Below are positions 2,888-61,770 of a DNA stretch of 64,000 nucleotides, in pieces. The position numbers were made by a program, and so were the translations under genes. Positions within the stretch are counted from its first letter, which is position 1. Every line of letters begins with the position of its first letter. The DNA is taken from contig OZ249436.1 in NCBI GenBank assembly GCA_965235115.1, positions 28,708,001 to 28,772,000 on the forward strand, read 5' to 3'. Under the pieces are notes generated by a model that had not been told where the DNA came from, ran no database searches, and was given only the letters and a program-made list of their open reading frames with translations. The stretch comes from Laetmonice hystrix (Eukaryota).

Positions 2888-3250
2888 TCCCACCCACACC
2901 CCACTAAACCCCACCCCCGGTCATGTAGTCCCACCCACACCCCACTAACCCCCCACCCCCAGTCATGTAGCCCCACCCACACCCTCTAACCCCCACCCCC
3001 AGTCATGTAGTCCCACCCACATCCCACTAACCCCCACCCCCCGTCATTTAGTCCCACCCACACCCCACTAACCCCCACCCCCAGTCATGTAGCCCCACCC
3101 ACACCCCACTAACCCCTACCCCCAGTCACGTAGTCCCACCCACACCCCACTAACCCCCACCCCCAGTCATGCAGCCCCACCCACACCTCACTAACCCACA
3201 CCCCCAGTCATGTAGTCCCACCCACACCCCGCCCCCCAGTCATGTAGTCC
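2888..3250 (-). repeat. 41-bp minisatellite in right foldback arm (inverse of left)
   Basis: CCCAGTCATGTAGTCCCACCCACACCCCACTAACCCCCA units. Confidence 0.9.
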
Positions 3251-9486: not shown

Positions 9487-9926
9487 AACTAGACATGCAG
9501 ATTGCAGGCAATCAGGTATCCCGTTCCTCTATGGATGTATCTAGAAAGGTTCTGTATAGCATGAAAGCAAGTGAGTCATACCAATAATGAGCATAGGGTT
9601 ACAAGAGAAAGACTGTGGGGAAGGTATATTCCAAATCTGGAGAAGATTCTCCAAAAAATGAGGGAGTAGATGCATTTTGACCAGTAATGAGCATAGGGTA
9701 CCGACAGACCACTTAGACACCTGTGTACACAAAAATTTCTTCCAAATAAAAAATATAAAAATGAATACCAAAAAAAAGGGTTGACATAGGTGGGATTTTT
9801 AGGCAATACCCTTGTCATAAAATTACCACACATCTGTTCACACACATATTTTGTAGAGTGTTTCTGTAAATTCATGACCACAGTAATTAAGAACTAAGTA
9901 GAAAATATTCAAAAAAAATAAAAATC

Positions 9927-9999
9927 ATGCCATGGGTAGGATTCGAATCCATGACCCTTGGCAAGAAAGTCCTACACTCTACCACAGCACCATCCGTAC
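9927..9999 (-). ncRNA. tRNA-derived Pol III module (degenerate), copy 1
   Basis: Minus strand GTACGGATGGTGCTGTGGTAGAG...GGATTCGAATCC with A-box/B-box-like motifs followed by T-runs. Stems are imperfect, so not a functional tRNA. Confidence 0.6.
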
Positions 10000-10186
10000 A
10001 CGCAGACAATTAGTAGAGTCCTGCAATAAATGAATGACCATTGCCATTGGCATAGAAGTAAACAACGATGAATTACATCATACCGGGGAGACGCCATACC
10101 AGGCTAAAAAAGGTCCCCTATTGTAAGAGAGCTATTTACCAAGATTACCGGAGGTAGAACATATATAAAAAAATTGAAAAAATCTT

Positions 10187-10259
10187 TTGTCACAGGTGGG
10201 ATTCGAACCCGAGACCTCTGGCATGAAGATCATAGACTCTACCACTAAGCCATCCGGGC
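10187..10259 (-). ncRNA. tRNA-derived (tRNA-Lys-like 5' end) Pol III module, copy 2
   Basis: Minus strand GCCCGGATGGCTTAGTGGTAGAG...GGGTTCGAATCCC then TTTTTT. Consensus A and B boxes; the acceptor stem does not close. Confidence 0.7.
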
Positions 10260-10907
10260 ACACACTCAATTTGTTGAGTGTTGCTGTAAATGAATCACCA
10301 TAGTGGTAGAGAACTGTGTGTTACGTCATACCATCGTTACGTCATAGCAGGCTTATAAAGGACGCCTAGTGGAAGAGAATTATGCCATTATCATTAGATA
10401 TCAACGAAATTCCACGAACTTCCTCATTACATGCAAAATAGACAAAATTCAAAGTCACGTGACTCAGCGATATGACGTCATATTTTAAAAAAAACTGCCA
10501 TCAATCGATCCGCCCCACTATGACGAAGCTATAAATCAAATTTGGAGAAGATTCTGTAAAAAATGAAGGAGTAGATAGATTTTGACTGTTTTCTATGGCT
10601 TGACCTGTATGTCAGAAAGGTCAAAGGTCAAAGGTCAAATGTATGTGGTAAATGATAAAGGTACAAGTCCTAAGTGAGATGACATGAATAACTTTTGTCT
10701 ATCTCTGACTGGAAGTGTACCACATGATCTCAAAGTTGCCGCACATAATACGTCATAACATGACGTCATGACGTCATATGACATATTCCATCATATGTTG
10801 AGGTCTCCATGTCATGATGTATCTAGCCTGAAAGTTTCATCCAGATATCTTGAAAACTGAGGGAGATATTGACCCGACCTTAACTACAACAATAATAATA
10901 ATAATAA

Positions 10908-12741
10908 CTAGAGCGATGGGTTGCTGGGCAACACCAAATCCCATTTCCTGTATCATGGGAGGGCAAGGACAAAAGCAGGTGACATTTAAGAAAAAACATC
11001 TAAACTTAATTCCTATGCATGTTTAATAGTACCTATGTGCTTATCATCCATCGTTTCCAAGATACAAAATCTATATATTGGCGGGACATAGATTTGACCT
11101 TTCAAGGTCACTGTATTGAAATAAAGATGGCGCCGAATGAAAGGCCATATATGACTTCCTATCCATGATTAATAGTAATCATGGACCTAGCTTGCACGGT
11201 TTCCAAGATACAGAGCTCTGAATATTGGCAGGTCACCAATTTGACCTTTCAAGGTCACTCCAGAGAAAAAAAGATGGCGCCAACTGAAAGCCCATATATG
11301 ACTTCCTATATATGATTAACAGTAACCACGGGCCTAACATGCACGGTTTCCAAGATACAGAGCTCTGAATATTGGCAGGTCACCAATTTGACCTTTCAAG
11401 GTCACTCCAGAGAAAAAAAGATGGCGCTAACTGAAAGCCCATATATGACTTCCTATATATGATTAACAGTAACCACGGGCCTAACATGCACGGTTTCCAA
11501 GATACAGAGCTCTGAATATTGGCAGGTCACCAATTTGACCTTTCAAGGTCACTCCAGAGAAATAAAAATGGCGCCAAATGAAAGGCCATATATGACTTCC
11601 TATCCATGTTTAATAGTAACTATTGGCCTATTGTGCATGGTTTCCAAGATACAGAGCTTTGAATATTGGCAGGTCACGGATTTGACCTTTCAAGGTCACT
11701 CCAGAGAAATAAAAATGGCGCCAAATGAATTGCCATATATATCTTCCTATCTATGTTTATTAGTAACTATGGGCCTATTATGCACGGTTTCAAAGATACG
11801 GAGCATTGAATATATGTAGGTCATGGATTTGATCTTTCAAGGTCACTGTAGCGAAGTACAAATGGCGCCAAATGAAATGCCATATATGACTTCCTATCTA
11901 TGTTTAATAGTAACTATGGGCCTATTGTGCACGGTTTCAAAGATACAGAGCATTGAATATATGTAGGTCATGGATTTGACCTTTCAAGGTCACTGTAGCG
12001 AAGTACAAATGGCGCCAAATGAAAGGCCAAATATGACTTCCTATCCTTGATTAATAGCAACTATTGGCTTATTTTGCATTGTTTTCAAGTTACAGGCGAT
12101 TTCCATATATTGCAACTAATTTTGCCAAAGGTCAAAGGTCACAGGGTCAATTCTGAAAAAAAAAATCATTGAAACATGTTTTATGTATGACAGGCTAACA
12201 AACCTGTCTAAAATATGCTTAGATATTGCTTAGATATTGCATAGATGCAAAATTTTATATTCTCTATGCAAACATACCATATTCACATGTTTAAAGTCAC
12301 GTGACAGGATGAAACTAGGTCAAATCGAAAAATCCAGCCAAACTGTTAAGCACCCTCCTATCAGGAGCCTCTGTGCCCAATTTGGTGAAATTTTATTGAA
12401 AATTGAGGGAGAAGATACGTTTTAACCGTTTTCCTAACTCTGACCTAATTTCGACTAAGGGCAAAGGTCACAGGTCAACTTTACCTAGAAAATTATTAGT
12501 GGACTTAATGTTCATTAGATGGCATTAACGCTTCTTGAGTATCTTCTCAGAGCACTATGAAAAACGACTTCAAAATTTAGCTGAAAAACGCCAATATTAC
12601 GTCATAAAACGTCCAAATTACGTCCTATGACGTAATGCATCTGGGTGCCAGTTGTCCTTGCCTAGGTGAACCTTCTGTCCAAGTTTCATTCAGATACCTT
12701 AAAAACTGAGCGAACGGCAAGCCTTGTCTTACTACAGGAAG
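10908..12741 (-). mobile_element. Family B HINE-like body 1 (CTAG end present, no adjacent hairpin module)
   Basis: CTAGAGCGATGGGTTGCTGGGCAACACCAAATCCCATTTCC start; seven 147-bp monomer palindromes (11094-11976); ends ACTACAGGAAG(AAT)n. Confidence 0.85.
11050..12100. repeat. Internal 147-bp tandem repeat of family B (example array)
   Basis: TTGACCTTTCAAGGTCA recurs at 11094, 11241, 11388, 11535...; 49-aa periodicity in ORFs. Every B body has such an array. Confidence 0.97.
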
Positions 12742-12752
12742 AATAATAATAA

Positions 12753-14581
12753 CTAGAGCGATGGGTTGCTGGGCAACACCAAATCCCATTTCCTGTATCA
12801 TGGGAGGGCAAGGACAAAAGCAGGTGACATTTAAGAAAAAACATCTAAACTTAATTCCTATGCATGTTTAATAGTACCTATGTGCTTATCATCCATCGTT
12901 TCCAAGATACAAAATCTATATATTGGCGGGACATAGATTTGACCTTTCAAGGTCACTGTATTGAAATAAAGATGGCGCCGAATGAAAGGCCATATATGAC
13001 TTCCTATCCATGATTAATAGTAATCATGGACCTAGCTTGCACGGTTTCCAAGATACAGAGCTCTGAATATTGGCAGGTCACCAATTTGACCTTTCAAGGT
13101 CACTCCAGAGAAAAAAAGATGGCGCCAACTGAAAGCCCATGTATGACTTCCTATATATGATTAACAGTAACCACGGGCCTAACATGCACGGTTTCCAAGA
13201 TACAGAGCTCTGAATATTGGCAGGTCACCAATTTGACCTTTCAAGGTCACTCCAGAGAAAAAAAGATGGCGCTAACTGAAAGCCCATATATGACTTCCTA
13301 TATATGATTAACAGTAACCACGGGCCTAACATGCACGGTTTCCAAGATACAGAGCTCTGAATATTGGCAGGTCACCAATTTGACCTTTCAAGGTCACTCC
13401 AGAGAAATAAAAATGGCGCCAAATGAAAGGCCATATATGACTTCCTATCCATGTTTAATAGTAACTATTGGCCTATTGTGCATGGTTTCCAAGATACAGA
13501 GCTTTGAATATTGGCAGGTCACGGATTTGACCTTTCAAGGTCACTCCAGAGAAATAAAAATGGCGCCAAATGAATTGCCATATATATCTTCCTATCTATG
13601 TTTATTAGTAACTATGGGCCTATTATGCACGGTTTCAAAGATACGGAGCATTGAATATATGTAGGTCATGGATTTGACCTTTCAAGGTCACTGTAGCGAA
13701 GTACAAATGGCGCCAAATGAAAGGCCATATATGACTTCCTATCTATGTTTAATAGTAACTATGGGCCTATTGTGCACGGTTTCCAAGATACAGAGCATTG
13801 AATATATGTAGGTCATGGATTTGACCTTTCAAGGTCACTGTAGCGAAGTACAAATGGCGCCAAATGAAAGGCCATATATGACTTCCTATCCTTGATTAAT
13901 AGCAACTATTGGCCTATTATGCATTGTTTTCATGTTACAGGTGATCATATATTGGAACTAATTTTGCCAAAGGTCAAAGGTCACAGGGTCAATTATGAAA
14001 AAAATCATTGAAACATGTTTTATGTATGACAGGCTAACACACCTGTCTAAAATAAGCTTAGATATTGCTTAGATATTGCATAGATGCAAAATGTTATATT
14101 CTCTATGCAAACATACCATATTCGCATGTTTAAAGTCACGTGACAGGGTGAAACTAGGTCAAATCGAAAAAATCCAGCCATACTTTTAAGCACCCTCGTA
14201 TCAGGAGCCTCTCTACCCAATTTGGTGAAATTTTATTGAAAAATGAGGGAGAAGATACGTTTTAAGCGTTTTCCTACCTCTGACCTAATTTCGACTAAGG
14301 TCAAAGGTCACAGGTCAACTTCACCTAGAAAATTATTAGTCGACTTAATGTTCATCAGATGGCAGTAACGCTTTTTGCATATCTTCTCAGAGCACCATGA
14401 AAATGGACTTCAAAATTTAGCTGAAAAACGCCAATATTACGTCATAAAACGTCCAAATTACGTCCTATGACGTAATGCATCTGGGTGCCAGGTGTCCTTG
14501 CCTAGGTGAACCTTCTGTCCAAGTTTCATTCAGATACCTTAAAAACTGAGCGAACGGCCAGCCTTGTCTTACTACAGGAAG
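12753..14581 (-). mobile_element. Family B body 2
   Basis: Same termini and internal array as body 1. Confidence 0.85.
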
Positions 14582-14589
14582 AATAATAA

Positions 14590-16126
14590 CTAGAGCGATG
14601 GGTTGCTGGGCAACACCAAATCCCATTTCCTGTATCCTGGGAGGGCAAGGACAAAGGCAGGTGACATTTAAGAAAAAACATCTAAACTTAATTCCTATGC
14701 ATGTTTAATAGTACCTATGTGCTTAACATCCATCGTTTCCAAGATACAAAACTCTGAATATTGGCGGGACATAGATTTGACCTTTCAAGGTCACTGTATT
14801 GAAATAAAGATGGCGCCGAATGAAAGGCCATATATGACTTCCTATCCATGATTAACAGTAACCATGGGCCTAACATGCACGGTTTCCAAGATACAGAGCT
14901 CTGAATATTGGCAGGTGACCAATTTGACCTTTCAAGGCCACTCCAGAGAAATAAAAATGGCGCCAAATGAAAGGCCCTATATGACTTCCTATCCATGTTT
15001 AATAGTAACTATTGGCCTATTGTGCATGGTTTCCAAGATACAGAGCTTTGAATATTGGCAGGTCACGGATTTGACCTTTCAAGGTCACTCCAGAGAAATA
15101 AAAATGGCGCCAAATGAAATGCCATATATGACTTCCTATCTATGTTTATTAGTAACTATGGGCCTATTGTGCACGGTTTCAAAGATACAGAGCATTGAAT
15201 ATATGTAGGTCATGGATTTGACCTTTCAAGGTCACTGTAGTGAAGTACAAATGGCGCCAAATGAAAGGCCATATATGACTTCCTATCCTTGATTAATAGT
15301 AACTGTGGGCCTATTGTGCATGGTTTCCAAGATACAGAGCATTGAATATATGTAGGTCATGGATTTGACCTTTCAAGGTCACTGTAGCGAAGTACAAATG
15401 GCGCCAAATGAAAGGCCATATATGACTTCCTATCCTTGATTAATAGCAACTATTGGCCTATTATGCATTGTTTTCATGTTACAGGCGATTCCATATATTG
15501 CAACTAATTTTGCCAAAGGTCAAAGGTCACAGGGTCAATTATGAAAAAAATCATTGAAACATGTTTTATGTATGACAGGCTAACACACCTGTCTTAAATA
15601 AGCTTAGATATTGCTTAGATATTGCATAGATGCAAAATGTTATATTCTCTATGCAAACATACCATATTCGCATGTTTAAAGTCACGTGACAGGGTGAAAC
15701 TAGGTCAAATCGAAAAATCCAGCCAAACTTTTAAGCAGCCTCCTATCAGGACCCTCTGTGCCCAATTTGGTGAAATTTTATTGAAAATTGAGGGAGAAGA
15801 TACGTTTTAAGCGTTTTCCTACCTCTGACCTAATTTCGACTAAGGGCAAAGGTCACAGGTCAACTTCACCTAGAAAATTATTAGTGGACTTAATGTTCAT
15901 CAGATGGCATTAACGCTTCTTGAGTATCTTCTCAGAGCACTATGAAAAACGACTTCAAAATTTAGCTGAAAAACGCCAATATTACGTCATAAAACGTCCA
16001 AATTACGTCCTATGACGTAATGCATCTGGGTGCCAGGTGTCCTTGCCTAGGTGAACCTTCTGTCCAAGTTTCATTCAGATACCTTAAAAACTGAGCGAAT
16101 GGCCAGCCTTGTCTTACTACAGGAAG
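14590..16126 (-). mobile_element. Family B body 3
   Basis: Same termini and internal array. Confidence 0.85.
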
Positions 16127-16143
16127 AATAATAATAATAATAA

Positions 16144-17522
16144 CTAGAGCGATGGGTTGCTGGGCAACACCAAATCCCATTTCCTGTATCCTGGGAGGGC
16201 AAGGACAAAGGCAGGTGACATTTAAGAAAAAACATCTAAACTTAATTCCTATGCATGTTTAATAGTACCTACGTGCTTAACATCCATCGTTTCCAAGATA
16301 CAAAATCTGAATATTGGCGGGTCATAGATTTGACCTGTATTGAAATAAAGATGGCGCCGAATGAAAGGCCATATATGACTTCCTATACATGATTAATAGT
16401 AATCATGGACCTAGCATGCACGGTTTCCAAGACACACAGCTCTGGATATTGGCAGGTCACCAATTTGACCTTTCAAGGTCACTCCAGAGAAAAAAAGATG
16501 GCGCTAATTGAAAGCCCATATATGACTTCCTATCCATGATTAACAGTAATCATGGACCTAGCATGCACGGTTTCCAAGATACAGAGCTCTGAATATTGGC
16601 AGGTGACCAATTTGACCTTTCAAGGTCACTCCAGAGAAATAAAAATGGCGCCAAATGAAAGGCCATATATGACTTCCTATCCATGTTTAATAGTAACTAT
16701 GGGCCTATTGTGCACGGTTTCAAAGATACAGAGCATTGAATATATGTAGGTCATGGATTTGACCTTTCAAGGTCACTGTAGCGAAGTACAAATGGCGCCA
16801 AATGAAAGGCAATATATGACTTCCTATACTTGATTAATAGCAACTATTGGCTTATTTTGCCTTGTTTTCAAGTTACAGGCGATTCCATATATTGCAACTA
16901 ATTTTGCCAAAGGTCAAAGGTCACAGGGTCAATTCTGAAAAAAAAATAATTGAAACATGTTTTATGTATGACAGGCTAACAAACCTGTCTAAAATATGCT
17001 TAGATATTGCTTAGATATTGCATAGATACAAAATTGTATATTCTCTATGCAAACATAACATATGCACATGTTTAAAGTCACGTGACAGGGTGAAACTAGG
17101 TCAAATCAAAAAATCCAGCCAAACTTTTAAGCACCCTCCTATCAGGAGCCTCTCTGCCCAATTTGGTGAAATTTTATTGAAAATTGAGGGAGAAGATACG
17201 TTTTAAGCGTTTTCCGACCTCTGACCTAATTTCGACTAAGGGCAAAGGTCACAGGTCAACTTCACCTAGAAAATTATTAGTGGACTTAATGTTCATCAGA
17301 TGGCATTAACGCTTCTTGAGTATCTTCTCAGAGCACTATGAAAAACGACTTCAAAATTTAGCTAAAAAACGCCAATATTACGTCATAAAACGTCCAAATT
17401 ACGTCCTATGACGTAATGCATCTGGGTGCCAGGTGTCCTTGCCTAGGTGAACCTTCTGTCCAAGTTTCATTCAGATACCTTAAAAACTGAGCGAATGGCC
17501 AGCCTTGTCTTACTACAGGAAG
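16144..17522 (-). mobile_element. Family B body 4
   Basis: Same termini; small deletion in the first monomer palindrome (~16335). Confidence 0.85.
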
Positions 17523-17530
17523 AATAATAA

Positions 17531-19063
17531 CAAGACACAGAGATCTGAATAGTGGCAGGTCACCAATTTGACCTTTCAATGTCACTCCAGAGAAAAAAAG
17601 ATGGCGCTAATTGAAAGCCCATATATGACTTCCTATCCATGTTTAATAGTAACCATGGGCCTAACATGCGCGGTTTCCAAGATACAGAGCTCTGAATATT
17701 GGCAGGTGACCAATTTGACCTTTCAAGGTCACTCCAGAGAAATAAAAATGGCGCCAAATGAAAGGCCATATATGACTTCCTATCCATGTTTAATAGTAAC
17801 TATTGGCCTATTGTGCATGGTTTCCAAGATACAGAGCTTTGAATATTGGCAGGTCACGGATTTGACCTTTCAAGGTCACTCCAGAGAAATAAAAATGGCG
17901 CCAAATGAAATGCCATATATGACTTCCTATCTATGTTTATTAGTAACTATGGGCCTATTGTGCACGGTTTCAAAGATACAGAGCATTGAATATATGTAGG
18001 TCATGGATTTGACCTTTCAAGGTCACTGTAGCGAAGTACTAATGGCGCCAAATGAAAGGCCATATATGACTTCCTATCTATGTTTAATAGTAACTATGGG
18101 CCTATTGTGCACGGTTTCCAAGATACAGAGCATTGAATATATGTAGGTCATGGATTTGACCTTTCAAGGTCACTGTAGCGAAGTACAAATGGCGCCAAAT
18201 GAAAGGCCATATATGACTTCCTATCCTTGATTAATAGTAACTATGGGCCTATTGTGCATGGTTTCCAAGATACAGAGCATTGAATATATGTAGGTCATGG
18301 ATTTGACCTTTCAAGGTCACTGTAGCGAAGTACAAATGGCGCCAAATGAAAGGCCATATATGACTTCCTATCCTTGATTAATAGCAACTATTGGCCTATT
18401 ATGCATTGTTTTCATGTTACAGGCGATTCCATATATTGCAACTAATTTTGCCAAAGGTCAAAGGTCACAGGGTCAATTATGAAAAAAATCATTGAAACAT
18501 GTTTTATGTATGACAGGCTAACACACCTGTCTTAAAATAGCTTAGATATTGCTTAGATATTGCATAGATGCAAAATGTTATATTCTCTATGCAAACATAC
18601 CATATTCGCATGTTTAAAGTCACGTGACAGGGTGAAACTAGGTCAAGTCGAAAAATCCAGCCAAACTTTTAAGCACCCTCCTATCAGGACCCTCTGTGCC
18701 CAATTTGGTGAAATTTTATTGAAAATTGAGGGAGAAGATACGTTTTAAGCGTTTTCCTACCTCTGACCTAATTTCGACTAAGGGCAAAGGTCACAGGTCA
18801 ACTTCACCTAGAAAATTATTAGTGAACTTAATGTTCATCAGATGGCATTAACGCTTCTTGAGTATCTTTTCAGAGCACTATGAAAAACGACTTCAAAATT
18901 TAGCTGAAAAACGCCAATATTACGTCATAAAACGTCCAAATTACGTCCTATGACGTAATGCATCTGGGTGCCAGGTGTGCTTGCCTAGGTGAAGCTTCTG
19001 TCCAAGTTTCATTCAGATACCTTAAAAACTGAGCGAACGGCCAGCCTTGTCTTACTACAGGAA

Positions 19064-19064
<1 letters not shown>
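17531..19064 (-). mobile_element. Family B body 5, truncated on the CTAG side
   Basis: (AAT)nAA joins directly to internal CAAGACACAGAG. Confidence 0.85.
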
Positions 19065-19102
<38 letters not shown>

Positions 19103-19103
<1 letters not shown>

Positions 19104-20561
19104 TAGAGCGATGGGTTGCTGGGCAACACCAAATCCCATTTCCTGTATCCTGGGAGGGCAAGGACAAAGGCAGGTGACATTTAAGAAAAAACATCTAAAC
19201 TTAATTCCTATGCATGTTTAATAGTACCTATGTGCTTAACATCCATCGTTTCCAAGATACAAAACTCTGAATATTGGCGGGACATAGATTTGACCTTTCA
19301 AGGTCACTGTATTGAAATAAAGATGGCGCCGAATGAAAGGCCATATATGACTTCCTATCCATGATTAACAGTAACCATGGGCCTAACATGCACGGTTTCC
19401 AAGATACAGAGCTCTGAATATTGGCAGGTGACCAATTTGACCTTTCAAGGTCACTCCAGAGAAATAAAAATGGCGCCAAATGAAATGCCATATATGACTT
19501 ACTATCTATGTTTATTAGTAACTATGGGCCTATTGTGCACGGTTTCAAAGATACAGAGCATTGAATATATGTAGGTCATGGATTTGACCTTTCAAGGTCA
19601 CTGTAGCGAAGTACAAATGGCGCCAAATGAAAGGCCATATATGACTTCCTATCTATGTTTAATAGTAACTATGGGCCTATTGTGCACGGTTTCAAAGATA
19701 CAGAGCATTGAATATATGTAGGTCATGGATTTGACCTTTCAAGGTCACTGTAGCGAAGTACAAATGGCGCCAAATGAAAGGCCATATATGACTTCCTATC
19801 CTTGATTAATAGCAACTATTGGCCTATTATGCATTGTTTTCATGTTACAGGCGATTCCATATATTGCAACTAATTTTGCCAAAGGTCAAAGGTCACAGGG
19901 TCAATTATGAAAAAAATCATTGAAACATGTTTTATGTATGACAGGCTAACACACCTGTCTTAAATAAGCTTAGATATTGCTTAGATATTGCATAGATGCA
20001 AAATGTTATATTCTCTATGCAAACATACCATATTCGCATGTTTAAAGTCACGTGACAGGGTGAAACTAGGTCAAATCGAAAAATCCAGCCAAACTTTTAA
20101 GCACCCTCCTATCAGGACCCTCTGTGCCCAATTTGGTGAAATTTTATTGAAAATTGAGGGAGAAGATACGTTTTAAGCGTTTTCCTACCTCTGACCTAAT
20201 TTCGACTAAGGGCAAAGGTCACAGGTCAACTTCACCTAGAAAATTATTAGTGAACTTAATGTTCATCAGATGGCATTAACGCTTCTTGAGTATCTTTTCA
20301 GAGCACTATGAAAAACGACTTCAAAATTTAGCTGAAAAACGCCAATATTACGTCATAAAACGTCCAAATTACGTCCTATGACGTAATGCATCTGGGTGCC
20401 AGGTGTCCTTGCCTAGGTGAACCTTCTGTCCAAGTTTCATTCAGATACCTTAAAAACTGAGCGAATGGCCAGCCTTGTCTTACTACAGGAAGAATAATAA
20501 TAATAGTGTACACGAAACCATACAACAACAAGATCCCATTTCCACAGAGTGGAAATGGGAT
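19103..20561 (-). mobile_element. Family B complete element (body 6 + hairpin module)
   Basis: CTAG end, 4 monomer palindromes, (AAT)n, then GTGTACACGAAACC...ATCCCATTTCCAC-AGA-GTGGAAATGGGAT. Confidence 0.88.
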
Positions 20562-20628
20562 AATAATAATAATAGTGTACACGAAACCATACAACAACAA
20601 AATCCCATTTCCACAGAGTGGAAATGGG

Positions 20629-20661
<33 letters not shown>

Positions 20662-20717
20662 GTGTACACGAAACCATACAACAACAAAATCCCATTTCCA
20701 CAGAGTGGAAATGGGAT
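20506..20717 (-). repeat. Stack of three 56-bp B terminal hairpin modules separated by (AAT)n
   Basis: Modules at 20506, 20575, 20662. Confidence 0.92.
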
Positions 20718-20722
20718 AATAA

Positions 20723-22549: not shown

Positions 22550-22563
22550 AATAATAATAATAA

Positions 22564-24247: not shown

Positions 24248-24258
24248 AATAATAATAA

Positions 24259-25733: not shown

Positions 25734-25747
25734 AATAATAATAATAA

Positions 25748-28311: not shown

Positions 28312-28349
<38 letters not shown>

Positions 28350-28405
28350 GTGTACACGAAACCATACAACAACAAAATCCCATTTCCACAGAGTGGAAAT
28401 GGGAT
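25748..28405 (-). mobile_element. Family B complete element (body 10, expanded array of ~12 monomers, + hairpin module at 28350)
   Basis: Both ends present; longest internal array. Confidence 0.88.
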
Positions 28406-28413
28406 AATAATAA

Positions 28414-32662: not shown

Positions 32663-32673
32663 AATAATAATAA

Positions 32674-34285: not shown

Positions 34286-34362
34286 AATAATAATAATAGT
34301 GTACACGAAACCATACAACAACAAAATCCCATTTCCACAGAGTGGAAATGGGATAATAATAA

Positions 34363-35399: not shown

Positions 35400-35425
35400 A
35401 ATAATAATAATAATAATAATAATAA

Positions 35426-36965: not shown

Positions 36966-36976
36966 AATAATAATAA

Positions 36977-38369: not shown

Positions 38370-38377
38370 AATAATAA

Positions 38378-39585: not shown

Positions 39586-39590
39586 AATAA

Positions 39591-40981: not shown

Positions 40982-40998
40982 AATAATAATAATAATAA

Positions 40999-42672: not shown

Positions 42673-42689
42673 AATAATAATAATAATAA

Positions 42690-44811: not shown

Positions 44812-44828
44812 AATAATAATAATAATAA

Positions 44829-46218: not shown

Positions 46219-46226
46219 AATAATAA

Positions 46227-48111: not shown

Positions 48112-48122
48112 AATAATAATAA

Positions 48123-49806: not shown

Positions 49807-49823
49807 AATAATAATAATAATAA

Positions 49824-51630: not shown

Positions 51631-51635
51631 AATAA

Positions 51636-53464
51636 CTAGAGCGATGGGTTGCTGGGCAACACCAAATCCCATTTCCTGTATCCTGGGAGGGCAAGGACAA
51701 AGGCAGGTGACATTTAAGAAAAAACATCTAAACTTAATTCCTATGCATGTTTAATAGTACCTATGTGCTTAACATCCATCGTTTCCAAGATACAAAATCT
51801 GAATATTGGCGGGTCATAGATTTGACCTTTCAAGGTCACTGTAATCAAATAAAGATGGCGCCGAATGAAAGGCCATATATGACTTCCTATCCATGATTAA
51901 TAGTAATCATGGACCTAGCATGCACGGTTTCCAAGACACAGGGATCTGAATAGTGGCAGGTCACCAATTTGACCTTTCAAGGTCACTCCAGAGAAAAAAA
52001 GATGGCGCCAATTGAAAGCTCATATATGACTTCCTATCCATGATTTACAGTAACCATGGGCCTAACATGCACGGTTTCCAAGATACAGAGCTATGAATAT
52101 TGGCAGGTCATGAATTTGACCTTCCAAGGTCACTACAGAGAAAGAAAAATGGCGCCAAATGAAATACCATATATGACTTCCTATCCATGGTTAATAGCAA
52201 CTATGGGTCTATCGTGCACGGTTCCCAAGATACAGAGCTTTGAATATTGGGGAGCATGGATTTGACCTTTCAAGGTCATGGTAGGGAAGTAAAGATGGCG
52301 CCGAATGAAAGCCCATATATGACTTCCTATCCATGATTAACAGTAATCATGGACCCAGCATGCACTGTTTCCAAGATACAGAGCTCTGAATATTGGCAGG
52401 TGACCAATTTGACCTTTCAAGGTCACTCCAGAGAAATAAAAATGGCGTCAAATGAAAGGCCATATATGACTTCCTATCCATGTTTAATAGTAACTATTGG
52501 CCTATTGTGCATGGTTTCCAAGATACAGAGCTTTGAATATTGGCAGGTCACGGATTTGACCTTTCAAGGTCACTGTAGCGAAGTACAAATTGCGCCAAAT
52601 GAAAGGCCATATATGACTTCCTATCTATGTTTAATAGTAACTATGGGGCTATTGTGCACGGTTTCCAAGATACAGAGCATTGAAAATATGTAGGTCATGG
52701 ATTTAACCTTTCAAGGTCACTGTAGCGAAGTACAAATGGCGCCAAATGAAAGGCCATATATGACTTCCTATCCTTCATTAATAGCAACTATTGGCCTATT
52801 ATGCATTGTTTTCATGTTACAGGCGATTCCATATATTGCAACTAATTTTGCCAAAGGTCAAAGGTCACAGGGTCAATTATGAAAAAAATCATTGAAACAT
52901 GTTTTATGTATGACAGGCTAACACACCTGTCTAAAATAAGCTTAGATATTGCTTAGATATTGCATAGATGCAAAATGTTATATTCTCTATGCAAACATAC
53001 CATATTCGCATGTTTAAAGTCACGTGACAGGGTGAAACTAGGTCAAATCGAAAAATCCAGCCAAACTTTTAAGCACCCTCCTATCAGGACCCTCTGTGCC
53101 CAATTTGGTGAAATTTTATTGAAAATTGAGGGAGAAGATACGTTTTAAGCGTTTTCCTACCTCTGACCTAATTTCGACTAAGGGCAAAGGTCACAGGTCA
53201 ACTTCACCTAGAAAATTTTTAGGGGACTTAATGTTCATCAGATGGCATTAACGCTTCTTGAGTATCTTCTCAGAGCACTATGAAAAACGACTTCAAAATT
53301 TAGCTGAAAAACGCCAATATTACGTCATAAAACGTCCAAATTACGTCCTATGACGTAATGCATCTGGGTGCCAGGTGTCCTTGCCTAGGTGAATCTTCTG
53401 TCCAAGTTTCATTCAGATACCTTAAAAACTGAGCGAATGGGCAGCCTTGTTTTACTACAGGAAG
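51636..53464 (-). mobile_element. Family B body 23
   Basis: Same termini; includes divergent monomers at ~52130-52380. Confidence 0.85.
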
Positions 53465-53478
53465 AATAATAATAATAA

Positions 53479-54870
53479 CTAGAGCGATGGGTTGCTGGGC
53501 AACACCAAATCCCATTTCCTGTATCCTGGGAGGGCAAGGACAAAGGCAGGTGACATTTAAGAAAAAACATCTAAACTTAATTCCTATGCATGTTTAATAG
53601 TACCTATGTGCTTAACATCCATCGTTTCCAAGATACAAAACTCTGAATATTGGCGGGACATAGATTTGACCTTTCAAGGTCACTGTATTGAAATAAAAAT
53701 GGCGTCAGATGAAAGGCCATATAGGACTTCCTATGCATGATTCAAAGTAACTATGGCCCTATTGTGCACAGTGTCCAAGATACAGAGCTCTGAATATTGC
53801 CAGGTCATTGATTTGACCTTTCAAGGTCACTCTAGGGAAATAAGAATGGCGGCAAATGAAAGCCCATATATGACTTCCTATATATGATTAACAGTAACCA
53901 CGGCCTAACATGCACGGTTTCCAAGATACAGAGCTCTGAATATTGGCAGGTCACCAATTTGACCTTTCAAGGTCACTCCAGAGAAATAGAAATGGCGCCA
54001 AATGAAAGGCCATATATGACTTCCTATCCATGTTTAATAGTAACTATTGGCCTATTGTGCATGGTTTCCAAGATACAGAGCATTGAATATATGTAGGTCA
54101 TGGATTTGACCTTTCAAGGTCACTGTAGCGAAGTACAAATGGCGTCAAATGAAAGGCCATATATGACTTCCTATCCTTGATTAATGGCAACTATTGGCTT
54201 ATTTTGCATTGTTTTCAAGTTACAGGCGATTCCATATATTGCAACTAATTTTGCCAAAGGTCAAAGTTCACAGGGTCAATTCTGAAAAAAAAAATAATTG
54301 AAACATGTTTTATGTATGACAGGCTAGCAAACCTGCCTAAAATATGCTTAGATATTGCTTAGATATTGCATAGATGCAAAATTTTATATTCTCTATGCAA
54401 ACATACCATATTCGCATGTTTAAAGTCACGTGACAGAGTGAAACTAGGTCAAATCAAAAAATCCAGCCAAACTTTTAAGCACCCTCCTATCAGGAGCCTC
54501 TGTGCCCAATTTGGTGAAATTTTATTGAAAATTGAGGGAGAAGATACGTTTTAAGCGTTTTCCTACCTCTGACCTAATTTCGACTAAGGGCAAAGGTCAC
54601 AGGTCAAGTTCACCTAGAAAATTATTAGTGGACTTAATGTTCATCAGATGGCATTAACGCTTTTTGAGTATCTTCTCAGAGCACTATAAAAAACGACTTC
54701 AAAATTTAGCTGAAAAACGACAATATTACGTCATAAAACGTCCAAATTACGTCCTATGACGTAATGCATCTGGGTGCCAGGTGTCCTTGCCTAGGTGAAC
54801 CTTCTGTCCAAGTTTCATTCAGATACCTTAAAAACTGAGCGAATGGGCGGGCTTGTTTTACTACAGGAAG
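53479..54870 (-). mobile_element. Family B body 24
   Basis: Same termini; divergent monomers at ~53690-53880. Confidence 0.85.
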
Positions 54871-54896
54871 AATAATAATAATAATAATAATAATAA

Positions 54897-56560
54897 CTAG
54901 AGCGATGGGTTGCTGGGCAACACCAAATCCCATTTCCGGTATATCCTGGGAGGGCAAGGACAAAGGCAGGTGACATTTAAGAAAAAACATCTAAACTTAA
55001 TTCCTATGCATGTTTAATAGTACCTTTCCAAGATACAAAATCTGAATATTCGCGGAACATAGATTTGACCTTTCAAGGTCACTGTATTGAAATAAAGATG
55101 GCGCCGAATGAAAGGCCATATATGACTTCCTATCCATGATTAACAGTGATCATGGACCTAGCTTGCACGGTTTCCAAGATACAGAGCTCTGAATGTTGGC
55201 AGGTCACCAATTTGACCTTTCAAGGTCACTCCAGAGAAAAAAAGATGGCGCCAACTGAAAGCCCATATATGACTTCCTATATATGATTAACAGTAACCAC
55301 GGGCCTAACATGCACGGTTTCCAAGATACAGAGCTCTGAATATTGGCAGGTCACCAATTTGACCTTTCAAGGTCACTCCAGAGAAAAAAAGATGGCGCTA
55401 ACTGAAAGCCCATATATGACTTCCTATATATAATTAACAGTAACCACGGGCCTAACATGCACGGTTTCCAAGATACAGAGCTCTGAATATTGGCAGGTCA
55501 CCAATTTGACCTTTCAAGGTCACTCCAGAGAAATAAAAATGGCGCCAAATGAAAGGCCATATATGACTTCCTATCCATGTTTAATAGTAACTATTGGCCT
55601 ATTGTGCATGGTTTCCAAGATACAGAGCTTTGAATATTGGCAGGTCACGGATTTGACCTTTCAAGGTCACTCCAGAGAAATAAAAATGGCGCCAAATGAA
55701 TTGCCATATATATCTTCCTATCTATGTTTAATAGTAACTATGGGCCTATTGTGCACGGTTTCCAAGATACAGAGCATTGAATATATGTAGGTCATGGATT
55801 TGACCTTTCAAGGTCACTGTAGCGAAGTACAAATGGCGCCAAATGAAAGGCCATATATGACTTCCTATCCTTGATTAATAGCAACTATTGGCCTATTATG
55901 CATTGTTTTTATGTTACAGGTGATCATATATTGGAACTAATTTTGCCAAAGGTCAAAGGTCACAGGGTCAATTATGAAAAAAATCATTGAAACATGTTTT
56001 ATGTATGACAGGCTAACACACCTGTCTAAAATAAGCTTAGATATTGCTTAGATATTGCATAGATGCAAAATGTTATATTCTCTATGCAAACATACCATAT
56101 TCGCATGTTTAAAGTCACGTGACAGGGTGAAACTAGGTCAAATCGAAAAAATCCAGCCATACTTTTAAGCACCCTCGTATCAGGAGCCTCTCTACCCAAT
56201 TTGGTGAAATTTTATTGAAAAATGAGGGAGAAGATACGTTTTAAGCGTTTTCCTACCTCTGACCTAATTTCGACTAAGGTCAAAGGTCACAGGTCAACTT
56301 CACCTAGAAAATTATTAGTCGACTTAATGTTCATCAGATGGCAGTAACGCTTTTTGCATATCTTCTCAGAGCACCATGAAAATGGACTTCAAAATTTAGC
56401 TGAAAAACGCCAATATTACGTCATAAAACGTCCAAATTACGTCCTATGACGTAATGCATCTGGGTGCCAGGTGTCCTTGCCTAGGTGAACCTTCTGTCCA
56501 AGTTTCATTCAGATACCTTAAAAACTGAGCGAACGGCCAGCCTTGTTTTACTACAGGAAG
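54897..56560 (-). mobile_element. Family B body 25
   Basis: Same termini; ~20-bp deletion near 55025. Confidence 0.85.
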
Positions 56561-56586
56561 AATAATAATAATAATAATAATAATAA

Positions 56587-58268
56587 CTAGAGCGATGGGT
56601 TGCTGGGCAACACCAAATCCCATTTCCTGTATCATGGGAGGGCAAGGACAAAAGCAGGTGACATTTAAGAAAAAACATCTAAACTTAATTCCTATGCATG
56701 TTTAATAGTACCTATGTGCTTATCATCCATCGTTTCCAAGATACAAAATCTATATATTGGCGGGACATAGATTTGACCTTTCAAGGTCACTGTATTGAAA
56801 TAAAGATGGCGCCGAATGAAAGGCCATATATGACTTCCTATCCATGATTAATAGTAATCATGGACCTAGCTTGCACGGTTTCCAAGATACAGAGCTCTGA
56901 ATATTGGCAGGTCACCAATTTGACCTTTCAAGGTCACTCCAGAGAAAAAAAGATGGCGCCAACTGAAAGCCCATATATGACTTCCTATATATGATTAACA
57001 GTAACCACGGGCCTAACATGCACGGTTTCCAAGATACAGAGCTCTGAATATTGGCAGGTCACCAATTTGACCTTTCAAGGTCGCTCCAGAGAAATAAAAA
57101 TGGCGCCAAATGAAAGGCCATATATGACTTCCTATCCATGTTTTATAGTAACTATTGGCCTATTGTGCATGGTTTCCAAGATACAGAGCTTTGAATATTG
57201 GCAGGTCACGGATTTGACCTTTCAAGGTCACTCCAGAGAAATAAAAATGGCGCCAAATGAATTGCCATATATATCTTCCTATCTATGTTTATTAGTAACT
57301 ATAGGCCTATTATGCACGGTTTCAAAGATACGGAGCATTGAATATATGTAGGTCATGGATTTGACCTTTCAAGGTCACTGTAGCGAAGTACAAATGGCGC
57401 CAAATGAAAGGCCATATATGACTTCCTATCTATGTTTAATAGTAACTATGGGCCTATTGTGCACGGTTTCCAAGATACAGAGCATTGAATATATGTAGGT
57501 TATGGATTTGACCTTTCAAGGTCACTGTAGCGAAGTACAAATGGCGCCAAATGAAAGGCCATATATGACTTCCTATCCTTGATTAATAGCAACTATTGGC
57601 CTATTATGCATTGTTTTCATGTTACAGGTGATCATATATTGGAACTAATTTTGCCAAAGGTCAAAGGTCACAGGGTCAATTATGAAAAAAATCATTGAAA
57701 CATGTTTTATGTATGACAGGCTAACACACCTGTCTAAAATAAGCTTAGATATTGCTTAGATATTGCATAGATGCAAAATGTTATATTCTCTATGCAAACA
57801 TACCATATTCGCATGTTTAAAGTCACGTGACAGGGTGAAACTAGGTCAAATCGAAAAAATCCAGCCATACTTTTAAGCACCCTCGTATCAGGAGCCTCTC
57901 TACCCAATTTGGTGAAATTTTATTGAAAAATGAGGGAGAAGATACGTTTTAAGCGTTTTCCTACCTCTGACCTAATTTCGACTAAGGTCAAAGGTCACAG
58001 GTCAACTTCACCTAGAAAATTATTAGTCGACTTAATGTCCATCAGATGGCAGTAACGCTTTTTGCATATCTTCTCAGAGCACCATGAAAATGGACTTCAA
58101 AATTTAGCTGAAAAACGCCAATATTACGTCATAAAACGTCCAAATTACGTCCTATGACGTAATGCATCTGGGTGCCAGGTGTCCTTGCCTAGGTGAACCT
58201 TCTGTCCAAGTTTCATTCAGATACCTTAAAAACTGAGCGAACGGCCAGCCTTGTCTTACTACAGGAAG
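56587..58268 (-). mobile_element. Family B body 26
   Basis: Same termini and internal array. Confidence 0.85.
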
Positions 58269-58288
58269 AATAATAATAATAATAATAA

Positions 58289-60266
58289 CTAGAGCGATGG
58301 GTTGCTGGGCAACACCAAATCCCATTTCCTGTATCATGGGAGGGCAAGGACAAAAGCAGGTGACATTTAAGAAAAAACATCTAAACTTAATTCCTATGCA
58401 TGTTTAATAGTACCTATGTGCTTATCATCCATCGTTTCCAAGATACAAAATCTATATATTGGCGGGACATAGATTTGACCTTTCAAGGTCACTGTATTGA
58501 AATAAAGATGGCGCCGAATGAAAGGCCATATATGACTTCCTATCCATGATTAATAGTAATCATGGACCTAGCTTGCATGGTTTCCAAGATACAGAGCTCT
58601 GAATATTGGCAGGTCACCAATTTGACCTTTCAAGGTCACTCCAGAGAAAAAAAGATGGCGCCAACTGAAAGCCCATATATGACTTCCTATATATGATTAA
58701 CAGTAACCACGGGCCTAACATGCACGGTTTCCAAGATACAAAGCTCTGAATATTGGCAGGTCACCAATTTGACCTTTCAAGGTCACTCCAGAGAAAAAAA
58801 GATGGCGCTAACTGAAAGCCCATATATGACTTCCTATATATGATTAACAGTAACCACGGGCCTAACATGCACGGTTACCAAGATACAGAGCTCTGAATAT
58901 TGGCAGGTCACCAATTTGACCTTTCAAGGTCACTCCAGAGAAATAAAAATGGCGCCAAATGAAAGGCCATATATGACTTCCTATCCATGTTTAATAGTAA
59001 CTATTGGCCTATTGTGCATGGTTTCCAAGATACAGAGCTTTGAATATTGGCAGGTCACGGATTTGACCTTTCAAGGTTTACAGAGAAATAAAAATGGCGC
59101 CAAATGAATTGCCATATATATCTTCATATCTATGTTTATTAGTAACTATGGGCCTATTATGCACGGTTTCAAAGATACGGAGCATTGAATATATGTAGGT
59201 CATGGATTTGACCTTTCAAGGTCACTGTAGCGAAGTACAAATGGCGCCAAATGAAAGGCCATATATGACTTCCTATCCTTGATTAATAGTAACTATGGGC
59301 CTATTGTGCATGGTTTCCAAGATACAGAGCATTGAATATATGTAGGTCATGGATTTGACCTTTCAAGGTCACTGTAGCGAAGTACAAATGGCGCCAAATG
59401 AAAGGCCATATATGACTTCCTATCCTTGATTAATAGCAACTATTGGCCTATGATGCATTGTTTTCATGTTACAGGCGATTCCATATATTGCAACTAATTT
59501 TGCCAAAGGTCAAAGGTCACAGGGTCAATTATGAAAAAAATCATTGAAACATGTTTTATGTATGGCAGGCTAACACACCTGTCTTAAATAAGCTTAGATA
59601 TTGCTTAGATATTGCATAGATGCAAAATGTTATATTCTCTATGCAAACATACCATATTCGCATGTTTAAAGTCACGTGACAGGGTGAAACTAGGTCAAAT
59701 CGAAAAATCCAGCCAAACTTTTAAGCACCCTCCTATCAGGACCCTCTGTGCCCAATTTGGTGAAATTTTATTGAAAATTGAGGGAGAAGATACGTTTTAA
59801 GCGTTTTCCTACCTCTGACCTAATTTCGACTAAGGGCAAAGGTCACAGGTCAACTTCACCTAGAAAATTATTAGTGGACTTAATGTTCATCAGATGGCAT
59901 TAACGCTTTTTGAGTATCTTCTCAGAGCACTATAAAAAACGACTTCAAACTTTAGCTGAAAAACGCCAATATTACGTCATAAAACGTCCAAATTACGTCC
60001 TATGACGTAATGCATCTGCGTGCCAGGTGTCCTTGCCTAGGTGAACCTTCTGTCCAAGTTTCATTCAGATACCTTAAAAACTGAGCGAACGGCCAGCCTT
60101 GTCTTACTACAGGAAGAATAATAATAATAATAATAATAGTGTACACGAAACCATACAACAACAAGATCCCATTTCCACAGAGTGGAAATGGGATAATAAT
60201 AATAATAATAGTGTACACGAAACCATACAACAACAAAATCCCATTTCCACAGAGTGGAAATGGGAT
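58289..60266 (-). mobile_element. Family B complete element (body 27) with two hairpin modules (60139, 60211)
   Basis: Both ends present plus one extra module. Confidence 0.88.
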
Positions 60267-60274
60267 AATAATAA

Positions 60275-61477
60275 CCAGAGAAATAAAAATGGCGCCAAAT
60301 GAAAGGCCATATATGACTTCCTATCCATGTTTAATAGTAACTATTGGCCTATTGTGCATGGTTTCCAAGATACAGAGCTTTGAATATTGGCAGGTCACGG
60401 ATTTGACCTTTAAAGGTCACTCCAGAGAAATAAAAATGGCGCCAAATGAAATGCCATATATGACTTCCTATCTATGTTTATTAGTAACTATGGGCCTATT
60501 GTGCACGGTTTCAAAGATACAGAACATTGAATATATGTAGGTCATGGATTTGACCTTTCAAGGTCACTGTAGCGAAGTACAAATGGCGCCAAATGAAAGG
60601 CCATATATGACTTCCTATCTATGTTTAATAGTAACTATGGGCCTATTGTGCACGGTTTCCAAGATACCGAGCATTGAATATATGTAGGTCATGGATTTGA
60701 CCTTTCAAGGTCACTGTAGCGAAGTACAAATGGCGCCAAATGAAAGGCCATAATATGGCCATATAATATATTATATGACTTCCTATCCTTGATTAATAGC
60801 AACTATTGGCCTATTATGCATTGTTTTCATGTTACAGGTGATCATATATTGGAACTAATTTTGCCAAAGGTCAAAGGTCACAGGGTCAATTATGAAAAAA
60901 ATCATTGAAACATGTTTTATGTATGACAGGCTAACACACCTGTCTAAAATAAGCTTAGATATTGCTTAGATATTGCATAGATGCAAAATGTTATATTCTC
61001 TATGCAAACATACCATATTCGCATGTTTAAAGTCACGTGACAGGGTGAAACTAGGTCAAATCGAAAAAATCCAGCCATACTTTTAAGCACCCTCGTATCA
61101 GGAGCCTCTCTACCCAATTTGGTGAAATTTTATTGAAAAATGAGGGAGAAGATACGTTTTAAGCGTTTTCCTACCTCTGACCTAATTTCGACTAAGGTCA
61201 AAGGTCACAGGTCAACTTCACCTAGAAAATTATTAGTCGACTTAATGTTCATCAGATGGCAGTAACGCTTTTTGCATATCTTCTCAGAGCACCATGAAAA
61301 TGGACTTCAAAATTTAGCTGAAAAACGCCAATATTACGTCATAAAACGTCCTAATTACGTCCTACGACGTAATGCATCTGGGTGCCAGGTGTCCTTGCCT
61401 AGGTGAACCTTCTGTCCAAGTTTCATTCAGATACCTTAAAAACTGAGCGAACGGCCAGCCTTGTTTTACTACAGGAA

Positions 61478-61515
<38 letters not shown>

Positions 61516-61703
61516 GTGTACACGAAACCATACAACAACAAAATCCCATTTCCACAGAGTGGAAATGGGATAATAATAATAGTGTACACGAAACCATACA
61601 ACAACAAAATCCCATTTCCACAGAGTGGAAATGGGATAATAATAATAGTGTACACGAAACCATACAACAACAAAATCCCATTTCCACAGAGTGGAAATGG
61701 GAT
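60275..61703 (-). mobile_element. Family B body 28 (truncated on the CTAG side) + three hairpin modules (61516, 61582, 61648)
   Basis: Same truncation junction as body 12. Confidence 0.85.
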
Positions 61704-61713
61704 AATAATAATA

Positions 61714-61770
61714 GTGTACACCCAAACCGTACAATTTCAGGATCCCGTTCCTCAGTCGGAGGAACGGGAT
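61714..61770 (-). mobile_element. Displaced terminal hairpin module of element A
   Basis: GTGTACACCCAAACCGTACAATTTCAGG-ATCCCGTTCCTC-AGTCG-GAGGAACGGGAT; the stem equals the motif at 9518-9529. Confidence 0.9.

Follow-up and report, generated by a model that had tools for sequence, protein, structure and literature searches.

Three nested families of probable Helentron-type elements with matched ends at one microsatellite in Laetmonice hystrix

Three families nested at one microsatellite

A 52.3-kb block in the Laetmonice hystrix genome is built from three homologous families, A, B and C, which are probably non-autonomous Helentron/Helitron2 elements of the HINE/DINE-1 type lying on the minus strand. 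The window examined comprises 64,000 nt of the forward strand of contig OZ249436.1 (GCA_965235115.1; 28,708,001-28,772,000). The same degree of confidence applies to the explanation as a whole, that is, to the classification, a Rep/helicase mechanism, the matching of ends and the growth of the array by self-targeting. In total, 20 heads and 31 bodies from all three families lie at one microsatellite (Table 1). On the minus strand, each element is ordered as 5'-TT, an 11-12-bp subTIR, an inverted copy of it that forms a hairpin, a conserved motif, a (TTA)n tract, a body, a 3' subTIR, a stem-loop and CTAG-3'. A HINE identity is supported by this anatomy, which agrees with the plan published for HINEs: a 5' subTIR and its IR, then a microsatellite and central repeats, and finally a 3' subTIR and a stem-loop. 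The subTIRs are 12, 11 and 12 bp long, 2 bp from the 5' end and 29, 30 and 33 bp from the 3' end, within the 11-15 bp, 0-4 bp and ~20-60 bp by which HINEs are recognized.

The 5' hairpins have stems of 12-13 bp (-12.8 to -14.0 kcal/mol), and a 3' stem-loop lies between the subTIR and the end in all three tails (-2.2 to -5.3 kcal/mol, that of A being weak). CTAG terminates 24 of 24 full tails. A short palindrome and terminal CTAG had been noticed in an earlier sequence-only reading of this DNA, whose identification of Helentrons is backed by all the structural tests that were possible. The three families it described are nested, with C inside B inside A, rather than side by side. Likewise, the stem that it saw repeated at the other end is present, and is the standard inverted subTIR, the element strand being minus. 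Across ~125 bp behind the head, the bodies of the three families share ~70% identity, suggesting that the differences between their stems are co-substitutions from a common ancestor.

Table 1. Positions of the elements and their parts in the window
Feature	Positions	Strand	Remarks
Empty paralogous target site	8010..8019	.	7405-8014 97% identical to left flank 8881-9488, continuing into right-flank sequence
Whole A element	9489..61772	-	5'-TT 61772-61771, CTAG-3' 9492-9489; boundaries from empty site
A head	61714..61772	-	TT; 5' subTIR (12 bp) 61759-61770; 5-nt loop; inverted copy 61742-61753; motif 61724-61734
A body	9489..10890	-	3' subTIR 9518-9529; stem-loop 9500-9513; CTAG 9489-9492
(TTA)n of A, distal part	10891..10907	-	proximal part 61704-61713; first landing site of B
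B module array	10908..61703	-	18 heads (56 bp each); 28 bodies (1.0-2.6 kb)
Example B head	61648..61703	-	11-bp subTIR, inverted copy, conserved motif
Example full B body	10908..12741	-	head-proximal core, 147-bp repeats, 3' subTIR 10938-10948, stem-loop, CTAG
Cryptic 3' end CTTG, truncated B body	17531..17534	-	joined to TT of microsatellite
Cryptic 3' end CTGG	34363..34366	-	joined to TT; breakpoint recurs at 60275-60278
Cryptic 3' end CTGC	38378..38381	-	joined to TT
Cryptic 3' end CTGG	60275..60278	-	joined to TT
C element	28414..32664	-	head 32608-32662; 3' subTIR 28447-28458; CTAG at 28414
C internal junction	30718..30770	-	body ends 4 bp past subTIR (30759-30770), without stem-loop or CTAG

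The A element has grown from ~1.5 kb to 52.3 kb through nested B and C elements. That its head and tail belong together across 52 kb, as previously claimed, is proven by the empty site in the same window, from which the block 9489-61772 is seen to be one insertion. Five A stand at the empty site, against 2+5 A flanking the block at the occupied one; the insertion thus contributed two T and caused no target duplication. In runs X4 and X5, both from one sample, contigs likewise pass from the left flank into right-flank letters. Contigs from runs X3-X5, again of one sample, cover the body of A in 30 of 30 bins; run X1, with 10 of 30 bins, nine pieces and a small share of words, was left out, and the share in X2 was likewise small. 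A 1.9-kb stretch of A had 873-1259 contig pieces per run at a summed depth of 1e4-1e5, figures that hint at many copies but do not represent a copy number.

Inside A, B modules are parted by (TTA)n alone, and all 18 B heads, all 28 B bodies and the one C element share the same orientation. Full CTAG tails are found in 22 B bodies, the other six being truncated, and each body carries 147-bp central repeats. Sequence conservation is concentrated at the termini: one of 56 positions varies among the 18 B heads, and none of the first 41 columns of the 22 tails varies, vs 78 of the 259 that follow (45 of 226 once two deletions are set aside). The C element, with central repeats of 312-590 bp, is itself a dimer of one head and two bodies, in which a truncated body is joined to the TT preceding the microsatellite of the second body.

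Matching of the terminal words

The positions previously given for the family-specific end words all hold. The A word, ATCCCGTTCCTC, occurs on the plus strand only at 9518 and 61742, and once on the minus strand as the other hairpin arm. The C word, ATCCCATCCCCC, lies at 28447, 30759 and 32635, and the B word, ATCCCATTTCC, is found 40 times on the plus strand (18 heads and 22 tails) and 18 times on the minus strand (hairpin arms). Each head matches its own tail perfectly (12/12 in A, 11/11 in B, 12/12 in C), whereas the six cross-family head-tail pairs share just 5-7 contiguous bases; predicted duplex energies are -13.3 to -16.4 kcal/mol for own pairs and -7.0 to -8.9 kcal/mol across families. 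The earlier claim that family-specific ends stay matched is thus upheld at 11-12 bp vs 5-7 bp. From base composition, the probability that the bases beyond ATCCC would match in all three families by chance is ~4e-13.

Variation is confined to inner stem positions. Positions 6, 8, 9 and 11 vary among families, each being altered in all three places (5' arm, inverted arm and 3' subTIR), and ATCCC, the TTGTAYGGTTT motif, TT and CTAG are common to all. The motif, read as AAACC[AG]TACAA, is present 20 times, on the plus strand only and 7 bp from the hairpin every time. The covariation rests on three families, with a single copy each of A and C, and so has little statistical depth.

Insertion into the microsatellite and cryptic 3' ends

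Insertion at TT without duplication is evident for A from the empty site and for B and C from the retained phase of the microsatellite. The 49 module junctions all fall in (TTA)n spacers, which sum to 740 bp and hold 252 TT, and none lies within the 50,422 bp of bodies, which offer 9,829 TT on both strands. At least 47 of the 49 retain the phase of a perfect microsatellite, and a (TTA)n tract follows the head in all three families. These observations raise the tentative idea, which we hold to be somewhat doubtful, that the HINEs carry their own landing pad, in that the (TTA)n tract behind the head repeats the element's initial TTAT and would be used by a head-bound Rep as a target and as an alternative start. 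If so, the landing pad alone would steer three families to one spot and one strand, would yield headless copies, and would need no rolling-circle concatemers to build arrays on a satellite scale; the interleaved families would be stopped from swapping ends by subTIR pairing.

Four B copies with three distinct breakpoints lack a subTIR in the vicinity, and yet form clean junctions with the target at CTTG, CTGG or CTGC. Among the distinct truncation points, three of six begin with CT, like the true CTAG (P ~0.003). A location of these cryptic ends behind hairpins of their own is unsupported, as one of the four folds well and so do many repeat positions. The four subTIR-less B ends indicate that end matching is not obligatory. 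Accordingly, the end-matching code of the sequence-only reading survives in that ends are kept matched, and is weakened in its strict form.

A putative transposition mechanism

The single-strand HUH chemistry of Helraiser (Grabundzija et al., 2018; PMC5876387) serves as the mechanistic model. Anatomy, boundaries, a TT target without duplication, nesting, and specificity for site and strand are shown by the sequence, and we infer the enzyme, the pairing, and the order and kind of events. A HUH Rep/helicase encoded elsewhere would bind the conserved head (hairpin and TTGTAYGGTTT), nick before 5'-TT, displace one strand and cut again past CTAG. The displaced strand would then be transferred to a position before a TT, without target duplication. 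The most likely reason for an 11-12-bp family word being kept identical at the 5' arm, inverted arm and 3' subTIR is that stopping at the right CTAG requires pairing between the 3' subTIR and the 5' arm, in line with the model of Bao and Jurka; such pairing would raise fidelity and not be obligatory. The (TTA)n behind each head, copying the TTAT start of the element, would serve as the preferred target.

Alternatively, the word in these same elements may be read by protein, each family's own Rep/helicase binding both ends with no duplex, much as TIRs are bound by DDE transposases. This is rather unlikely, though published families are described as sharing their subTIR with a specific autonomous partner (PMC4067079), the end-to-end duplexes are barely stabler than the hairpins, so that a switch would need help, and the cryptic ends function without a subTIR. 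Against it, only the inner stem varies and the rest is constant, as one would expect were the constant part read by protein and the variable part constrained by pairing; in addition, target and strand are the same in all three families. From three families, base pairing and protein recognition of one word at three places are inseparable.

Growth of the array

Under the preferred account of self-targeting transposition, growth to 52 kb would follow from the (TTA)n tract of every element acting as a preferred target. B would have entered A, followed by more B and one C into B, in a single orientation, and copies begun in or read through nested donors would give units with extra heads or bodies. 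Some block duplication, together with recombination between copies, would have contributed as well. Pure Russian-doll nesting is rejected, as the head count goes negative with 28 B bodies vs 18 heads.

It is unlikely that, after a few insertions, the array instead grew mainly by unequal crossing-over, (TTA)n slippage and gene conversion, with no transposase. Several observations would suit such growth: (TTA)n direct repeats flank heads and bodies alike, bodies exceed heads by 10 and are mosaics of left and right haplotypes, and three consecutive heads (47930-48111) share a rare variant and 7-bp spacers. Furthermore, a few junctions recur with identical flanks, including exact matches of 930 nt and 534 nt across a junction, indicating that duplication in place contributed; near-identical junction pairs number four vs 1.65 expected (P=0.08). 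However, neighbors are not similar, adjacent bodies showing 20.3 differences against 19.6 for random ones (P=0.68), and haplotype linkage within bodies (r=0.30, P=0.0007) is lost across junctions (r=0.00, P=0.50). Of the 44 exact matches of at least 400 nt, only two cross a junction and reach 100 nt into both of its sides. Recombination also leaves unexplained the new ends that start with CT in microsatellite phase and the entry of C.

It is very improbable that a single B circle gave rise to a rolling-circle concatemer whose integration took one or a few events. The single orientation of all modules would agree with it, and Helitron concatemers have been reported and, in the accounts drawn on here, proposed for plant centromeric Helitron arrays. 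It is largely refuted by the lengths of the spacers and the interleaving of haplotypes: a seamless circle junction would leave a 2-bp spacer, which is seen in none of eight head-to-tail joints (5, 5, 5, 8, 8, 8, 11 and 11), and the B bodies differ by 0-39 of ~690 bases with subfamilies interleaved. Moreover, the plant arrays are described as having many 5' ends and one 3' end, whereas here 3' ends outnumber 5' ends.

Element class and coding content

Though both ends carry inverted repeats and such elements were formerly classed as MITEs, as noted in PMC4067079, an origin as MITEs from a cut-and-paste (DDE) transposon whose inverted repeats are subterminal is the least credible reading, given repeats that are asymmetric (2 bp vs 29-33 bp from the ends), no target duplication at the empty site of A, a 3' stem-loop with CTAG, and one-ended truncated copies. 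A canonical Helitron1 does not fit either, as the elements start with TT rather than TC and possess subTIRs; the hairpin and CTRR-3' of that class are present.

No ORF above 182 aa lies between 9489 and 61772, and no coding remnant or RepHel partner was found, Pfam searches with 6 of 32 ORFs giving sub-threshold matches only. ARAGORN found no tRNAs in the window, and there were no Rfam matches in 9300-12900. The head pattern and a B-body motif were absent from viral contigs, as was a stricter head pattern from prokaryote genomes. Fifteen head-pattern matches in metagenomes are attributed to chance, having stems of 5-9 bp and a CTAG tail upstream in 0 of 15.

Comparison with known systems

The closest parallels are in the Helitron2 group, for which the account of Bao and Jurka (2013; PMC3627910) describes asymmetric inverted repeats (ATIRs) of 8-15 bp, the 5' copy in a terminal hairpin and the 3' copy 20-30 bp from the end before a hairpin, as here. 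Compensatory changes in ATIRs between related families are reported there, with the proposal that the 5'-ATIR's pairing with the 3'-ATIR undoes the 5' hairpin and defines the endpoint. The model of the sequence-only reading, in which end-to-end pairing opens the 5' hairpin with compensatory changes, was thus already published in 2013. Unlike that group as described, three families change here in three places at once, and the sequence allows 5'-TT and CTAG-3' to be assigned as the ends.

HINE/DINE-1 families, for which a subTIR of 11 bp is the defining feature (Thomas, Vadnagara and Pritham, 2014; PMC4067079), share with the present elements the order of subTIR, IR, microsatellite, central repeats, 3' subTIR and stem-loop, as well as a TT target without duplication. 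The A subTIR matches 11 of 13 positions, with one gap, of the 13-bp subTIR given there for Helentron-Dy-60.1, the partner of D. yakuba DINE-1. That work, in the parts used here, left the end to which the flanking Ts belong unassigned, whereas the empty site and truncated copies place both on the 5' end; 5'-TT/CTAG-3' is described in it for proto-Helentron, which was given Helitron-like ends. A nested 52-kb array is not among the cases in those parts.

Cg_HINE of Crassostrea gigas (Vojvoda Zeljko et al., 2020; PMC7492417), compared by description, is similar in comprising related families whose subTIR, IR, stem-loop and microsatellite each carry changes particular to the element, and in its central repeats of 140-180 bp (one cluster of 147 bp) and its T-rich target without duplication. 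It differs in its words and in its microsatellites, mostly GTCY-like and offering no TTAT, and is described as dispersed rather than stacked in its own microsatellite. In FoHeli (Chellapan et al., 2016; PMC5148889), short 5' termini are likewise tandemly repeated; in the explanation given, an element inserts into itself and transposition then runs from the outer head as far as the first tail. The cases presented are isolated, with two or few termini, in contrast to 20 heads and 31 bodies here, both in surplus. Helraiser, a Helitron1, shares CTAG-3' after a hairpin and insertion without duplication (Grabundzija et al., 2018; PMC5876387), but is described as starting with TC, lacking subTIRs and inserting between A and T, whereas A entered a T run.

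In the portions of the literature considered, no experimental test of Helentron/Helitron2 end function was met. For such work, the cut points (5'-TT, CTAG-3') are established by the empty site together with copies truncated in nature, and the three homologous families provide ready-made matched and mismatched end pairs. The array also illustrates a route from mobile element to satellite-like block, via repeated self-targeting of an internal microsatellite. Matched ends and the pairing idea are already published, and the locus clearly exemplifies a kind already known; new here are the fixing of the ends as TT...CTAG and a microsatellite that may act as a built-in landing pad.

Anatomy and matched ends of the three families

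Read on the minus strand, the non-autonomous families A, B and C share one order: TT, a subTIR, a short loop, its inverted copy, a conserved motif, (TTA)n, the body, a 3' subTIR, a small stem-loop and CTAG. This is the plan described for DINE-1/HINE elements in the relevant sections of PMC4067079 and for oyster Cg_HINE in those of PMC7492417, in agreement with the Helentron-type ends proposed from sequence alone. In addition, the listed subTIR of Helentron-Dy-60.1 agrees with the A word, the family-specific 11-12-bp sequence of the subTIR, at 11 of 13 positions. No ORF longer than 182 aa lies within the block (the A element with its nested B and C elements), and a Pfam scan of 6 of 32 ORFs gave no match above threshold. 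A, B and C are real, well-bounded, new members of an already known kind.

The three words occur where the sequence-only reading had placed them (see table), with the B word present 40 times on the plus strand and 18 times on the minus strand of the window. The motif AAACC[AG]TACAA has 20 occurrences in the window, all on the plus strand and each 7 bp from a 28-29-bp hairpin, and the window holds no opposite-strand heads (5' modules up to this motif) or tails (3' subTIR, stem-loop and CTAG). Head and tail of the same family match at 12 (A), 11 (B) and 12 (C) bases, against 5-7 in the six cross-family pairs; from base composition, the chance of a word match in all three families beyond ATCCC is ~4e-13. 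Four stem positions differ among the families, each altered in all three places. Because the bodies are ~70% alike across ~125 bp behind the head, the families share common ancestry and these differences are true co-substitutions, which upholds the earlier claim of family-specific covarying ends. Among B tails (n=22) the first 41 columns are invariant, while 78 of the 259 following columns vary, or 45 of 226 once two deletions are left out; B heads have one variable position among 56. A and C are each represented by one copy in the window.

Coordinates of features in the window
Feature	Position	Strand	Remark
Broken reading frame	160-630		
Foldback-like element	1216-3800		long inverted arms 92-97% complementary, TA-flanked; inverted 41-bp tandem arrays inside
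Short motif in foldback-like element	3286-3298		common to head-proximal end of B
72-bp satellite	4713-8887, 61791-64000		strongly G-skewed; flanks block on both sides; 39-bp subunits, higher-order periods
Paralogue of left flank	7405-8014		97% identical to left flank
Left flank	8881-9488		
Block	9489-61772		
A word	9518, 61742	+	only plus-strand occurrences
A-body internal repeats	9930-9996, 10190-10256		69% alike
Linker departure	10870		
B 147-bp central repeat	11010-60757		inverted pair of AGGTCA half-sites
C word	28447, 30759, 32635	+	
Three successive B heads	47930-48111		rare variant, 7-bp spacers

Boundaries and cut points of the A element

The paralogue of the left flank continues directly into right-flank sequence, and the same passage from left-flank to right-flank letters is seen in contigs of public runs X4 and X5, both from one sample. 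Five A bases stand at the empty site and two plus five around the block at the occupied site; thus, the block is a single insertion, with a gain of two T and no duplication, and pairing the two A words as the ends of one element was correct. In four truncated B bodies the last bases are CTTG, CTGG (in two of them) or CTGC, joined to microsatellite TT; the base following these breakpoints in a full B copy is not T. Such joints place the 3' cut after CTAG and assign both Ts to the 5' end. Thomas et al., in the sections consulted, give proto-Helentron ends as 5'-TT and CTAG-3' and left open which end carries the Ts (PMC4067079).

Growth of the nested array

The A head and A body are separated by family B modules, namely 18 heads and 28 bodies (of which 22 are full and 6 truncated), and by a single C element of one head and two bodies. 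Each of the 49 junctions is a (TTA)n tract; these tracts add up to 740 bp with 252 TT, while no comparable insertion was found in bodies across 50,422 bp with 9,829 TT. Perfect-microsatellite phase is kept at every junction except two microhomology truncations.

Bodies differ at 0-39 of ~690 bases (mean 2.8%), with subfamilies interleaved, and adjacent bodies are no more similar than random ones (P=0.68). Haplotypes are linked inside a body (r=0.30, P=0.0007, n=22) but show no linkage from one side of a junction to the other (r=0.00, P=0.50, n=21), also where the junction is headless (r=0.05, P=0.32, n=16). The absence of extra similarity between neighbours, together with linkage confined to bodies, favours repeated arrival of units. 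Counting against a history of pure insertion are the excess of bodies over heads by ten, the mosaic nature of the bodies, three successive B heads that probably arose by tandem duplication in place, and some junctions found more than once with the same sequence on either side (a junction is spanned by 2 of 44 long exact matches); near-identical junction pairs number 4 against 1.65 expected (P=0.08). Both repeated insertion and local duplication or recombination probably contributed to growth. A rolling-circle concatemer is rejected, since the 2-bp spacer expected where a circle closes is found in 0 of 8 head-to-tail joints.

Surrounding and internal sequence

Each A-body repeat carries on the minus strand what we take to be a tRNA B-box-like stretch, at which ARAGORN and Rfam found no tRNA or structured RNA. 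Direct AGGTCA pairs occur in A, B and C bodies; like the inverted pair in the 147-bp repeat of B, they presumably resemble nuclear-receptor elements. At the linker departure, public contigs pass into a different linker ahead of the microsatellite, which suggests that some A elements form a subfamily whose head-proximal segment is another sequence. The ~600-bp non-satellite unit duplicated within the satellite, as left flank and paralogue, is high-copy in public contigs. By eye, the broken frame resembles the beginning of the endonuclease region of a LINE; Pfam gave no match for ORF 164-535, the frame covered by the scan.

Proposed mechanism

By analogy with Helraiser, as described in part in PMC5876387, a Rep/helicase encoded elsewhere would nick the 5' end and displace one strand; a second cut would fall after CTAG, and the strand would be joined in front of TT. 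Protein probably reads the parts common to all families (TT, ATCCC, the motif and CTAG), and pairing probably constrains the inner stem, which varies. End-to-end pairing is marginally favoured over protein reading of the matched word. The matching of own-family ends agrees with the proposal that the ends must pair or be recognised together; however, the subTIR is missing from 4 of the 26 B ends that are joined cleanly, at three distinct breakpoints, so pairing cannot be obligatory. Three of six distinct truncation points start with CT (P ~0.003), which looks like the enzyme stopping by itself at CTAG-like sites. The microsatellite copies the first four bases of the element and would act as a target, which would explain the single orientation.

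Comparison with known elements

The pairing mechanism put forward in the sequence-only reading is already published as a proposal: the relevant sections of Bao and Jurka 2013 (PMC3627910) describe the same ends, report that two related elements differ by compensatory changes, and propose that ATIR-ATIR pairing may destroy the 5' hairpin and set the replication endpoint. Likewise, Helentron classification rests on family-specific subTIRs in the part consulted of PMC4067079, such subTIRs are described among related Cg_HINE in that of PMC7492417, and the same HLE2 hallmarks appear in that of HELIANO (PMC11417382). Pattern scans of public viral, metagenome and prokaryote collections returned no true relative.

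For the array, the consulted section of a review (PMC12628747) treats truncated-Helitron arrays and shuffled oyster loci, citing Xiong 2016 and McGurk and Barbash 2018, while those of PMC12001565 and PMC8268682 contain no description of nesting of this kind. On stacking in an internal microsatellite, literature outside subscription papers and Repbase reports yielded nothing on point beyond Fusarium, where repeated 5' termini arise by self-insertion according to the part consulted (PMC5148889). Relative to these systems, the modest added value lies in a nested, microsatellite-targeted 52-kb array and in fixed cut points.
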